Shown: positions 34,208 to 36,659, counted from the stretch's first letter. The stretch is DNA of 64,000 bases from an uncultured Bacteroidales bacterium (GCA_964544705.1 CAZJDA010000005.1:76661-140660); one strand, 5' to 3'. The notes: generated by a model from the sequence alone, not told the origin. A program made the numbers and translations.

Positions 34208-35788
34208 TCAGAATTTATTAATTCCTATCATCTCAACTAAATCTTCCTGTTTAGCCCCATTGGGATAAATCACTTTTGCCAAGCGAACAAGGTTCCTGAT
34301 TTCCCTGCCGTTTAATTCGATTTTTGACACTTCTGAAAAACCATCTTGAATATTAATATTCGCTTTCTCGCATTTATCTTCCCAAATTTTTTCTCTTGTT
34401 TTTTCATCTAAATCAGGATATTTAATTTTTAAGGTAATTCTTGAATGGATAGCAAAATCGAGTACTTCCGGCCTGTTTGACGTTAAAAACATTACACCTC
34501 TAAAATAGTCCATAAGCCGTAAAAACACTCCCACAATGGCCGTTCTGTTTAAGTCACTTTTTTCTCGTTTCGCAAGAAAAACATCGATTTCATCAAACAA
34601 TACAATGGCATTCCATTTTTCAACTCGTCTAAAAATAGTGGTTAGGCTATTTTCTATACTGTTTAAGTCTGTGCCCAGTTCACTAAAATCTACAGCGTAT
34701 AGTGGCATCTGTTGCATTTCAGAATATACTTCGGCAGTAGATGTTTTCCCAATTCCCGGATTACCCGCTGCAAGTATAATCATACCTCCATGTTTATTAT
34801 CTAATACATCGCCAATAAAAGAATCTATTGATGTAGAAAACACGGTTGTTAAAAGTTTTGTAATATTCTTTGGAAGAAAAATTCTTTTATGTGCCTCTGT
34901 ATCATAAACGTAATCAGTTAAATTATTCACATTTGCAAAAAAATACTTTTTTTGTAAAAAGGAAAACACCCGTACTAATGGTAGTGAAGTATAATGATTT
35001 TTATTAACTTCCTGGTTTCTATTTGAATTATCTCTATATTCTAGCTCTGATTCTATTATTATTCTCTCTTTAATTTTATTGTGACCAATTTTAATGAAAA
35101 TACAATCATCATTATAATAATTTCTACCAAGCATCCTTACACCAAATCCACTGTATAGCATTTGCTTTTTTGTATCTCTTATTTTTTTAAGATATGATAA
35201 TGAATCTTTATGTTTTTCGAGATCACACTGTTGCGGACGACAACCAAACTCGGCAAACAGCTCCTTTAATGTTGGTTTTCTCATTTTCCCATCGGCAGCA
35301 AGTAAGTGTTCTTGCTCAATTTTAAAACCAATATTAATATATTCATAACCAAAACTAACTTTGACGTCAACAAAAACAAAAGCCTTCATATATCTTGTAG
35401 CCGGGTTGAATATAGGTATTGCAATTATAGGAAACCATGTTTTATTGAATAAGATATCTGCGTTTACTTTTTTTACACCTATTCTTGAAAAACATTCAAC
35501 AACATCAGCCAATTTTCTGATCTTTGTATCCCATACTTCATTGATTTGCGAAATTTCAATGTTTTCGCCTAAAAGTTCCATGCTTAAAAGCGCTTTTGTT
35601 TTATTCGCAATGTTGTTTGAATTTTTCAAAAAGAATGATAATAACGATACAGAAATAGAATTACTGTCTATGTCAACAAAACGGCTTTCTGCATTTTGGT
35701 AATTACCAATTTCTTGCTGGTCAGAATTACTTAAGTCCAGCTCTTCTTTAGCTTTATTTAAAAGCGCTTTCTTAATTTTAATATTCAT
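34208..35788 (-). CDS. AAA ATPase (classical AAA clade) with uncharacterised ~330-aa N-terminal region
   Basis: Walker A AAGNPGIGKTSTAE, Walker B IVLFDEIDVF, sensor-1/second region of homology FLTSNRPEVLDFAIHSRI, then LKIKYPDLDEKTREKIW. Confidence 0.85.
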   Translation of the reverse strand: MNIKIKKALLNKAKEELDLSNSDQQEIGNYQNAESRFVDIDSNSISVSLLSFFLKNSNNIANKTKALLSMELLGENIEISQINEVWDTKIRKLADVVECFSRIGVKKVNADILFNKTWFPIIAIPIFNPATRYMKAFVFVDVKVSFGYEYINIGFKIEQEHLLAADGKMRKPTLKELFAEFGCRPQQCDLEKHKDSLSYLKKIRDTKKQMLYSGFGVRMLGRNYYNDDCIFIKIGHNKIKERIIIESELEYRDNSNRNQEVNKNHYTSLPLVRVFSFLQKKYFFANVNNLTDYVYDTEAHKRIFLPKNITKLLTTVFSTSIDSFIGDVLDNKHGGMIILAAGNPGIGKTSTAEVYSEMQQMPLYAVDFSELGTDLNSIENSLTTIFRRVEKWNAIVLFDEIDVFLAKREKSDLNRTAIVGVFLRLMDYFRGVMFLTSNRPEVLDFAIHSRITLKIKYPDLDEKTREKIWEDKCEKANINIQDGFSEVSKIELNGREIRNLVRLAKVIYPNGAKQEDLVEMIGINKF

Positions 35789-35791
35789 TTT

Positions 35792-36091
35792 TTATGTTTT
35801 AATTTTTAAACCAATATCTTCGGCAATTGATTTCCAATATCTATTATGATTATTTTCAAGTCCGGCAATTGCATGCGCAATTTCATGTAATATAGTATTT
35901 TGGATTTCATCGATAGGATCTAACAGAGAGTGCTGATAGTTTAATTTTATAGCTTCATCGGTGCAGTAGCCCAGTTTTAAACTATCATTTGAAAATCCAA
36001 AATCTAAATAATCCACATCGAATTTTACCATCAAGTGATTAGCTAAAGCGATTACTTCCAAAATTTTTTCATTTATTACAAATTGTGCCAT
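35792..36091 (-). CDS. SprT-like HExxH zinc metallopeptidase (minimal, 99 aa)
   Basis: FGFSNDSLKLGYC...IKLNYQ...TILHEIAHAI...NHNRYW follows the SprT-like layout. It overlaps the upstream gene by 23 nt and lies 3 nt before the AAA gene. Confidence 0.6.
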   Translation of the reverse strand: MAQFVINEKILEVIALANHLMVKFDVDYLDFGFSNDSLKLGYCTDEAIKLNYQHSLLDPIDEIQNTILHEIAHAIAGLENNHNRYWKSIAEDIGLKIKT

Positions 36092-36659
36092 AAGTTCTAA
36101 ATAATGACTCTAAAAGTATATAAGCTTCTTCATCTACATTTTTATAATATTCCGGAAATGGTATATTTTTATTCCTATCTGTGATTTCATATTTTGCAAC
36201 ATGGCAATTATAATTATCCAGTTGATTTAGTGCATCATTTGCCATATTATTCTTTTTATTGCCTTCAAATGATGCCGGCAAAGTAACTATTATAGAAAAA
36301 TGCTTACCGGTTTCAGACAAAAACTCAGATAAGCGTAAAGAGAATTTGGTTCCTGTATATCCTCCCAAACCGGCTACAAGAATATAATATTCATTTTCAT
36401 TAAATATATCCATTATTTTGCCCGGCACTATCAAAGGAACACTTTTATCTGTCCAGGCTTCCGGGTACCTGGTATTTTTAAAATGCTCATCTAAGGGAGG
36501 CTGAAACTCCATGAGATTTAAACCCATTGGATTTGAAAAGCGTTCCGGCCGAGATACACAAGTGTACCTGCCATGTAATCCTTTCTTAAAAGTATGTTCC
36601 AAAATCATAGAACCTGCCTGGCCTAAACCAATAAAATGAAAATTTTTGAATGACTTCAT
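36069..36659 (-). CDS. FtsZ/tubulin-like GTPase domain protein, C-terminally truncated (196 aa)
   Basis: The motifs fall in FtsZ order and spacing. FIGLGQAGS corresponds to GVGGGGxN. VAGLGGYTGT corresponds to GMGGGTGTG. TLPASFEGNKK corresponds to KPFxFEGxKR. YEITDRN corresponds to ITIPNDK. The protein ends around helix H7, before the T7 loop. Confidence 0.7.
   Translation of the reverse strand: MKSFKNFHFIGLGQAGSMILEHTFKKGLHGRYTCVSRPERFSNPMGLNLMEFQPPLDEHFKNTRYPEAWTDKSVPLIVPGKIMDIFNENEYYILVAGLGGYTGTKFSLRLSEFLSETGKHFSIIVTLPASFEGNKKNNMANDALNQLDNYNCHVAKYEITDRNKNIPFPEYYKNVDEEAYILLESLFRTYGTICNK

Follow-up and report, generated by a model that had tools for sequence, protein, structure and literature searches.

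Three genes, for a truncated FtsZ-like protein, a small metallopeptidase and an AAA+ ATPase, lie almost end to end in a 64,000-nucleotide (nt) stretch of DNA from an uncultured Bacteroidales bacterium (GCA_964544705.1, CAZJDA010000005.1:76661-140660; this whole stretch is called the window below). The question raised by this locus is whether the three genes work as one system. According to a six-frame list of open reading frames (ORFs), gene 1 (36069-36659(-)) encodes a short FtsZ-like protein of 196 amino acids (aa), gene 2 (35792-36091(-)) a minimal SprT-like zincin metallopeptidase of 99 aa, and gene 3 (34208-35788(-)) an N-domain + AAA+ ATPase of 526 aa. The original prediction for this locus had proposed a conserved three-gene system. 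Across other genomes, the conserved units were found to be SprT+AAA and WYL regulator+FtsZ-like, not the triad, and we lean, if only slightly, towards reading the 2.5-kb unit as a co-transcribed mosaic of two separable modules in a Bacteroidota defence island.

The packing of the genes was confirmed from both the ORF list and the raw sequence. Gene 2 starts inside the end of gene 1, giving an overlap of 23 nt (36069-36091), and genes 2 and 3 are separated by 3 nt (35789-35791). The triad leaves no internal space for a promoter, so that its genes must share a transcript, as had been predicted. All motifs quoted for the three proteins (GLGGYTGT, HEIAH, GNPGIGKT, LFDEID and SNRPEVLDFAIHSRI) were recovered in the translations, and the genes are real rather than chance ORFs, because each has homologues elsewhere.

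Conserved neighbourhoods of the three genes

Loci of the gene-3 family were collected from public assemblies and from one genome per species, and all ORFs were labelled with local profiles. Loci of FtsZ-like genes were obtained from look-ups and a metagenome scan. The locus scans used alignment A1 for gene 3 and sub-alignment A4 for the FtsZ-like family, A2 being the alignment of the N-domain. The A1 scan also gave ~50 proteobacterial loci sharing the AAA half only, which were set aside.

The FtsZ-like gene was absent from all ~35 gene-3-family loci besides the window (whose own locus is L001), and these FtsZ-free loci include the closest gene 3 homologues, with 63%, 60%, 53% and 48% identity. 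At the locus of the 63%-identical homologue (L195), an unrelated 134-aa gene precedes SprT+AAA. The gene-3 family was likewise found in none of the ~20 FtsZ-like lineages (window apart). Synteny of the three genes is thus largely lacking, and the idea of a conserved triad did not hold in its original form.

The pair of genes 2 and 3 does recur. A SprT gene adjoins the AAA gene, on either side, in the window, L003-5, L007, L008, L011, L026, L028, L029 and L195; SprT-adjacent AAA loci number nine and are of Bacteroidota type. Only SprT remnants were seen in L197/198, with HExxH changed to HKIAH. SprT is missing from L002, L196 and all Planctomycetota and other loci, where the AAA gene stands solo with no conserved neighbour. 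A GmrSD pair or a fragment of one lies near the gene-3 family in the window, L003-5, L007, L008, L011, L028, L196 and L197/198, and a WYL gene does so in the window, L002, L003-5, L011, L026, L028, L033, L196 and L197.

Two further observations were made at these loci. In L197 (7394-8011), remnants of DEDDh and SprT genes lie between an intact GmrSD pair and an intact gene 3 homologue, and these remnants show module-wise decay. A cyclic-phosphate-processing receiver protein (cREC_REC, 122-123 aa) is encoded beside SprT+AAA in L007, L008, L011 and L026, ~60-110 nt downstream of the AAA gene and on the opposite strand.

The FtsZ-like gene has a different preferred neighbour. A WYL gene is found directly upstream of it on the same strand in L093/L105, L094, L095, L098, L100-102, L103 and L104/L106, that is in ~7 lineages and 10 loci, and the two genes are often a few bases apart or overlapping. 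In L099, the WYL gene is one gene away. Other neighbours of the FtsZ-like genes include a type III CRISPR Cas10/Cmr2 with RAMP and AbiEii (L093), two Mrr_cat genes (L099), GmrSD pairs (L089, L090, L199), PDDEXK_4 (L098, L199), DEDDh (L098), a restriction endonuclease with McrB-like AAA_5 (L088), and HNH and Metallophos (L106). The order on one strand in L199 is FtsZ-like, PDDEXK_4, GmrSD, GmrSD, so that PDDEXK_4 occupies the slot taken by SprT+AAA in the window.

Non-WYL FtsZ-like loci have an upstream gene of 196-265 aa, the copies in L087 (199-789) and L096 (221-1018) being 66% identical, or a second type of ~250 aa, with 25% identity between L088 (5209-5946) and L091 (965-1723). The upstream 245-265-aa genes in L088, L091, L096 and L112 gave no Pfam match and no match to the WYL profile. 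These unannotated families, neither of them with a Pfam match, may be alternative regulators.

A partial repeat of the triad was found in L100-102, where an N-domain+AAA gene, a SprT-like gene, a WYL gene and an FtsZ-like gene follow each other on one strand. The SprT-like gene belongs to the same family as gene 2 (E = 3.9e-26). The ATPase is 26% identical to gene 3 in its AAA part, and its N-domain is not alignable. This N-domain+AAA gene is split by an insertion sequence of the IS3 type (helix-turn-helix (HTH) + rve; L100/L102, 4616-5787), which sits just after Walker A; the downstream SprT, WYL and FtsZ-like genes are intact. The same AAA type also adjoins or lies near FtsZ-like genes in L099, L103 and L106; in L003-5 and L010 a gene for a Metallophos protein comes after it, and this protein matches PDC-S10 of the PADLOC collection (E = 4.5e-48 in L003-5). 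IetA-like ATPases with varied N-domains therefore pair with interchangeable small hydrolases, and such ATPases tend to share islands with WYL+FtsZ-like cassettes.

Features of the encoded proteins

Several searches place gene 1 in the FtsZ/tubulin superfamily. With the single sequence, Pfam Tubulin (PF00091) scored 29.9 bits at aa 84-150, the gathering score being 33, and phmmer against FtsZ in the Protein Data Bank (PDB) gave E = 9e-5 over aa 9-155. The profile of the short FtsZ-like family (A3) matched solved FtsZ structures in the PDB at E = 6.6e-19, over FtsZ residues 9-188 only, in line with the predicted N-terminal GTPase domain ending before the T7 loop and the C-terminal domain. Canonical two-domain FtsZ proteins were reached at ~1e-13 (in a database of 5.8e9 proteins), and here too the homology was confined to the N-terminal domain. 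Gene 1 ends in helix H7. The T7 synergy loop and PF12327, which are expected of cell-division FtsZ, are both lacking, and TIGR00065 scored 30 bits vs a cutoff of 295. Taken together, the profiles support an FtsZ N-terminal GTPase-domain fold for the predicted protein, cut before T7.

Gene 1 is a member of a family. A word-indexed search of the 5.8e9 proteins returned gene 1 itself only; an exhaustive HMMER search of 1.84e9 representatives gave 285 clusters at E <= 1e-3, of which 118 reached E <= 1e-10; almost all are 170-235 aa long and 25-40% identical to gene 1. The FtsZ-like proteins at the collected loci are 25-50% identical among themselves and no closer to canonical FtsZ. Gene 1 carries T1 GLGQAGS, T4 GLGGYTGT, PASFEG and H7, and the conserved motifs in A3 are HFIGLGGAG (T1), LLAGLGGYTGT (T4), CSxPFxFEGxxR and AFxxADE (H7). 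The T1, T4, PFxFEG (T5) and H7 motifs are thus retained, with the GLGxxG of T1 nearly invariant. The T4 loop reads GGYTGT vs GGGTGT, a family-wide replacement of the third Gly by Tyr, and the T2 'NTD' and T3 'GAG' motifs are unrecognisable. Judged from these alignments, the end point before T7 is a conserved family trait rather than decay. The family gave no matches in a scan of IMG/VR and none in PHROGs.

A leader resembling a twin-arginine translocation (Tat) signal, in which MNRR(E/D)xIKxL precedes a hydrophobic stretch and a P, was found in 58 of 129 FtsZ-like representatives (~45%), directly before the T1 strand. It was observed among representatives P0122-P0270 and at loci L095, L097, L098 and L103; the protein in the window is without it.

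Gene 2 scored 31.7 bits with SprT-like (PF10263), above the gathering score of 25.6. Its motif HEIAHAIAGLENNH holds HExxH (HEIAH) and a third His ligand, so the predicted SprT-like assignment stands. The NCBIfam SprT equivalog NF003421 reached 15.3 bits vs a cutoff of 175: with 99 aa and no Zn-ribbon or DNA-binding extension, the protein is too short for an E. coli-type SprT. Homologues of 98-121 aa recur beside the gene-3 family.

Gene 3 joins a classical AAA+ module to an N-terminal domain, as had been anticipated. AAA (PF00004) covers aa 339-457 (E = 1.3e-14), and the module with its lid spans aa 336-526 (34208-34783(-)). The N-domain, aa 1-335 (34784-35788(-)), gave no Pfam family and no PDB sequence match; it consists of a helical part (aa 1-105) and a beta-rich part (aa 110-292), with the family motifs GRWYPV, IIExELE and LPxVRVFS. 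All ~90 full-length homologues, at 28-63% identity, have this ~335-aa domain. Walker A K348, Walker B D399/E400, sensor-1 N438, R450 and R495 are invariant in the family, which accounts for the Walker motifs, sensor-1 and Arg finger of the classical-clade AAA+ fold. Manual alignment with the canonical motif puts pore loop 1 at columns 374-377, between E370-L-G-T and I378-E379; these positions differ among 82 homologues and are not aromatic. Because pore loop 1 is without a conserved aromatic residue, gene 3 probably encodes an ATPase that works as a switch or sensor rather than as a threading unfoldase.

An AlphaFold model of gene 3 made with the 82-sequence alignment had a predicted local distance difference test (pLDDT) score of 90.8. 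Foldseek against the PDB matched the AAA module only, with Rpt subunits and Msp1 (both at E ~1e-12) and FtsH-like structures on top. Against BFVD, the whole protein including the N-domain matched AAA ATPases of giant viruses (Klosneuvirus, Homavirus and Terrestrivirus) at E ~1e-34, with a template-modelling (TM) score of 0.64-0.69 and a root-mean-square deviation of ~4 Å, and Mimivirus-like ATPases share the fold. Gene 3 relatives were also observed on 100-400-kb IMG/VR contigs (L115-L119, L166). The phage family phrog_29662 of PHROGs matches gene 3 at E = 9.5e-44, and the C-terminal ~270 residues (268 aa) are 36% identical to a Colletotrichum protein of the fungal DUF7025-AAA type; DUF7025 itself was not detected in gene 3. 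Four PADLOC models of IetA match gene 3, the best at E = 2.7e-14 over aa 289-489. This match covers profile positions 77-280 of 374 only, and NCBIfam IteA gave 40 bits vs a cutoff of 510.

Transcription and surroundings of the triad

The triad opens a minus-strand cluster of seven genes in the order FtsZ-like, SprT, AAA, GmrSD, GmrSD, DEDDh and a 145-aa gene. After an AT-rich gap of 266 nt (33942-34207) downstream of gene 3 come two overlapping GmrSD_N (DUF262) genes of 634 and 785 aa (29720-33941(-)), and the cluster ends with a DEDDh exonuclease gene (164 aa; PADLOC DEDDh/PDC-S48) and the gene for the 145-aa protein without assigned function (28780-29716(-)). At its far end, 8 kb from the FtsZ-like gene and convergent with the cluster, lies a gene for a WYL-domain (HTH-WYL-WCX) regulator (27752-28675(+); PADLOC WYL, E = 9e-31). 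On the other side of the triad, a DUF6922 ORF (47 aa) and a PLDc_2 nuclease-like gene (172 aa; DrmC-like) form a divergent pair (36910-37568(+)). The DUF6922 ORF (36910-37053(+), E = 4e-19) overlaps the PLDc_2 start by 4 nt, and the two make up a divergent unit opposite the triad.

The island is limited by dnaE (22976-26491) and tRNA-Cys (38698-38769), and its GC content is 0.28-0.32 vs ~0.35 in the window. The predicted surroundings, with two GmrSD_N genes, a PLDc_2 gene, tRNA-Cys and an AT-rich island, were all present. PADLOC matches among the neighbours are GmrSD/SspE-like, DEDDh/PDC-S48, WYL and DrmC-like PLD, in addition to the IetA-like match of gene 3, and they bear out the proposed defence-island context. 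The HTH-WYL-WCX gene together with the GmrSD, DEDDh/PDC-S48 and DrmC-like PLD genes is the composition of a WYL-type defence island.

The only room for a triad promoter is the intergenic stretch 36660-36909, within the 390-nt intergenic region upstream of gene 1 (36660-37049). It holds two matches to the Bacteroidetes -7 motif TAnnTTTG, one (TATATTTG) at 36738-36745(-) upstream of gene 1 and one at 36855-36862(+), facing the divergent DUF6922/PLD pair. Another match (34037-34044(-)) and a palindrome with 8-bp arms at 34172 lie within the gap between gene 3 and the GmrSD pair, so that a separate promoter for the GmrSD genes is possible; no terminator-like site was found in this gap. Since TAnnTTTG occurs in the window no more often than expected (89 vs 102 matches), the intergenic matches are weak evidence, and their positions point only faintly to two transcription units. 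A scan for sigma-70 promoters and terminators gave no enrichment and was uninformative. A shared operator was sought among four intergenic regions and yielded one 12-mer only, CTTTTCCAAATT, which is common to the regions upstream of the GmrSD pair (33942-34207) and of gene 1 (36660-37049), in opposite orientation. With a chance of ~5% by a rough estimate, it is not convincing as an operator.

Elsewhere in the window, the 13-mer TCACCCGGTGAAT occurs five times vs 0.04 expected, at 6772-6784(+), 6835-6847(-), 37593-37605(+), 38375-38387(+) and 38445-38457(-). The copies form two inverted pairs, 63-70 nt apart, and three of them lie in the ORF-poor, GC-richer 37.6-38.5 kb stretch between the PLD gene and tRNA-Cys, for which no Rfam family match was obtained. 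The repeat may be an element resembling repetitive extragenic palindromes or miniature inverted-repeat transposable elements, or an island-boundary relic. An S-adenosylmethionine riboswitch (RF00162, 66.7 bits) was observed at 57771-57867(-).

Possible functions and relation to known systems

We infer both the function and the defence role of all three genes, and hypothesize the following for the mosaic. Genes 2 and 3 would form one module, in which a SprT-like zincin is joined to an IetA-like AAA+ ATPase with a family-specific 335-aa N-domain. The N-domain may recognise a signal, with ATP hydrolysis predicted to be intact, so that the ATPase acts as a sensor or switch that restrains or licenses the protease, the putative toxic or effector arm. 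This logic is modelled on IetAS, with the ATPase as candidate antitoxin and the protease as candidate toxin. The module is often accompanied by a WYL regulator and a type IV restriction pair (GmrSD). The other module would be gene 1, a member of the large family of single-domain FtsZ N-terminal homologues, whose genes normally come directly after WYL in defence islands. Its product may bind guanine nucleotide, and because it is without the T7 loop and the C-terminal domain, it would neither complete a GTPase site nor extend a filament. FtsZ subunits join a filament at its bottom end; a protein whose 'top' face is intact but whose 'bottom' face is missing could therefore dock onto the growing end of an FtsZ or phage tubulin filament and act as a cap. 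Such capping would arrest division once the WYL regulator de-represses the gene.

Several points weigh against this reading, the main misfits being the Tat-like leaders, the lost T2/T3 loops and the solo AAA genes. If functional, a Tat-like leader would export the protein, which conflicts with the capping of cytoplasmic FtsZ. Nucleotide binding and the longitudinal interface of the predicted gene 1 protein are only putative, because T2 and T3 are not conserved and T4 has a Tyr, and the single-sequence AlphaFold prediction of gene 1 (pLDDT 34) was unusable as a 3D model. The solo AAA genes of Planctomycetota indicate that the ATPase is not always protease-dependent, which weakens a strict toxin-antitoxin arrangement. 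As to the separability of the modules, the 23-nt overlap of genes 1 and 2 hints at more than accidental adjacency. Of ~19 FtsZ-like lineages, 5 have an N-domain+AAA gene in the vicinity and 2 a SprT gene; this is more than would be expected of unrelated genes, so that a functional link is possible.

These last points favour the rival view that the triad is a true three-component system after all, in which the FtsZ-like protein would be a decoy or sensor of phage FtsZ inhibitors, or an adaptor delivering host FtsZ or phage tubulin to the ATPase-protease. We regard this as possible, if on the doubtful side. The overlapping reading frames and the 3-nt gap speak for it, as does a close relative (at least 90% identity) with FtsZ-like + SprT on one 3.8-kb contig. 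The predicted triad is also partly rescued by L100-102, with its non-orthologous N-domain+AAA, SprT, WYL and FtsZ-like genes on one strand, and by three further lineages in which the FtsZ-like gene is followed by N-domain+AAA (L103), forms a divergent pair with it (L099) or lies 2.5 kb from it (L106). However, the gene-3 family is absent from these lineages, and the AAA gene of L100-102 is of another family and split by IS3 while its SprT, WYL and FtsZ-like neighbours are intact. Zero FtsZ-like genes in ~35 gene-3 loci, the unrelated 134-aa gene of L195, the PDDEXK_4 gene between FtsZ-like and the GmrSD pair in L199 and the lack of SprT or AAA near most FtsZ-like genes all argue for two separate units. 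A broader proposal appears slightly less likely still: that FtsZ N-domain-only proteins of ~200 aa might be a new immunity class of the tubulin superfamily, WYL-repressed and acting on infection as a capper of host FtsZ or phage tubulin or as a decoy for phage division inhibitors, and wired here to an ATPase-controlled zincin as a three-part device without a catalogued counterpart.

Another explanation, which we regard as improbable, is a DNA-damage or cell-cycle checkpoint cassette, in which WYL would sense single-stranded DNA, the truncated FtsZ would block division (compare SulA and DidA) and SprT+AAA would clear DNA-protein crosslinks (compare SPRTN with p97/VCP). DNA-protein-crosslink proteases have a SprT-like fold, the AAA module belongs to the classical clade and matches Rpt, Msp1 and FtsH-like structures, and a DEDDh exonuclease is present in the cluster. 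Moreover, the WYL proteins DriD and PafBC are damage sensors activated by single-stranded DNA, and DriD induces a division inhibitor (PMC9186387, PMC4211646, PMC11804915). The neighbours are nevertheless overwhelmingly restriction and abortive-infection genes (GmrSD, Mrr, PDDEXK_4, AbiEii, type III CRISPR, PLD and PDC-S10), and the patchy, strain-level, island-like distribution with insertion sequences and pseudogenes is unlike that of a housekeeping checkpoint. The 99-aa SprT protein, short of the Zn-ribbon or DNA-binding extension and of the equivalog cutoff (15 vs 175), and the AAA module without the pore-loop aromatic residue expected of an unfoldase also do not fit. It is scarcely credible, finally, that gene 1 is what remains of a decaying ftsZ duplicate and has no function of its own, leaving only SprT+AAA to matter. 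The protein is short, its Pfam score falls below the gathering score and its single-sequence structure prediction is poor, but the 285 clusters of similar length (170-235 aa), with conserved motifs and end point, 25-50% mutual identity and no closer relation to canonical FtsZ, indicate purifying selection on a stand-alone domain rather than repeated decay. The pseudogene fragment, contradicted by this family, was therefore rejected; a housekeeping cell-division paralogue was also considered and rejected.

Should the two-module reading prove true, SprT-type zincins would join the proteases that are guarded by an AAA+ ATPase in the manner of IetAS, here with a new sensor domain, and the N-domain fold, found in giant viruses and with relatives in fungi, would offer a tractable bacterial entry to a large AAA family that is uncharacterised. 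A stand-alone half-FtsZ would have been retained by bacteria again and again under WYL control in defence islands, providing the first tubulin-superfamily protein linked to immunity or damage signalling and a natural, genetically encoded FtsZ filament-capper candidate. The Tat-like leader on nearly half of the family adds a puzzle, as an FtsZ domain would apparently be exported. Should these ideas fail, the locus would still serve as a useful set of markers for the defence islands of Bacteroidota, whose coverage in current catalogues is poor.

The composition had not been recognised among named defence systems, and this agrees with our searches. Neither gene 1 nor gene 2 is represented by a model in PADLOC v2, the literature on FtsZ-like proteins with WYL, FtsZ in defence islands and SprT with AAA in anti-phage systems, together with the BrxR survey, gave no description, and a 2023 survey of FtsZ/tubulin families does not mention the FtsZ-like family of gene 1.

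To our knowledge, the known FtsZ cappers are unrelated small proteins and not FtsZ fragments. FtsZ filaments elongate from the bottom end, and sub-stoichiometric amounts of a bottom capper suffice to block this (bioRxiv 10.1101/2020.02.25.965095); compared with FtsZ end-cappers and inhibitors such as MciZ, SulA and MipZ, a gene 1 product that has a top face but lacks a bottom one would in principle behave as a bottom capper. Compared with FtsZ itself, gene 1 aligns to residues 9-188 and keeps T1, T4, T5 and H7 at an identity of only ~25-30%, and it differs by having no T7 or C-terminal domain, by the loss of T2/T3, by the GGYTGT of T4 and by the Tat-like leader on nearly half of its family. 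FtsZl1 and FtsZl2 (Makarova & Koonin 2010, PMC2875224) are likewise divergent bacterial members of the FtsZ-tubulin superfamily not expected in ordinary division. Membership was judged by the family definitions given there and was rejected for both, as had been foreseen: FtsZl1 has a coiled coil and an alpha-helical C-domain and occurs in vWA/OmpA/kinase operons, and FtsZl2 is proteobacterial, keeps T7 and has a ~300-aa C-region and no conserved context, whereas the gene 1 family is single-domain (~200 aa, range 170-235 aa) and found downstream of WYL in defence islands.

WYL/BrxR homologues co-localise with many defence systems, including the GmrSD-family BrxU (PMC9122601). Like regulators of the BrxR/CapW type, an HTH-WYL-WCX gene stands directly upstream of FtsZ-like genes in ~7 lineages and in the same island in the window, although in the window it is 8 kb away and convergent, and no paper was found that lists FtsZ-like as WYL cargo. 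DriD, a WYL activator, turns on the gene for a division inhibitor, didA (PMC9186387, PMC4211646), and a WYL regulator switching on a division inhibitor would be the feature shared with DriD by analogy.

The ATPase has relatives in fungal DUF7025-AAA proteins, giant-virus AAA ATPases and phrog_29662, none of them functionally characterised. Among defence genes, the IetA-like AAA + Metallophos (PDC-S10) pair resembles genes 2 and 3 in having a ~335-aa N-domain + AAA followed by a small hydrolase, and it adjoins the gene-3 family in L003-5 and L010 and lies near FtsZ-like in L106; its effector is a calcineurin-like phosphoesterase instead of a zincin, and its N-domain and that of gene 3 cannot be aligned. 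IetAS is reportedly an anti-phage system of Gao and colleagues from 2020 and originally a plasmid-stabilising toxin-antitoxin pair. It combines a protease toxin and an ATPase antitoxin (PMC13069673), and shares with our locus an AAA+ ATPase + protease pair in defence islands, gene 3 matching part of the PADLOC IetA profile. The protease of IetAS is the S8 subtilase IetS vs a ~100-aa SprT-like zincin here, no S8 protease, adjacent or otherwise, being present in the island. The gene 3 ATPase differs by its unrelated 335-aa N-domain and low NCBIfam IteA score, and gene order in its family varies, with many members solo. Within the searches described above, the WYL-linked half-FtsZ family appears to be undescribed, and the ATPase-zincin pair appears to extend the IetAS kind of system.

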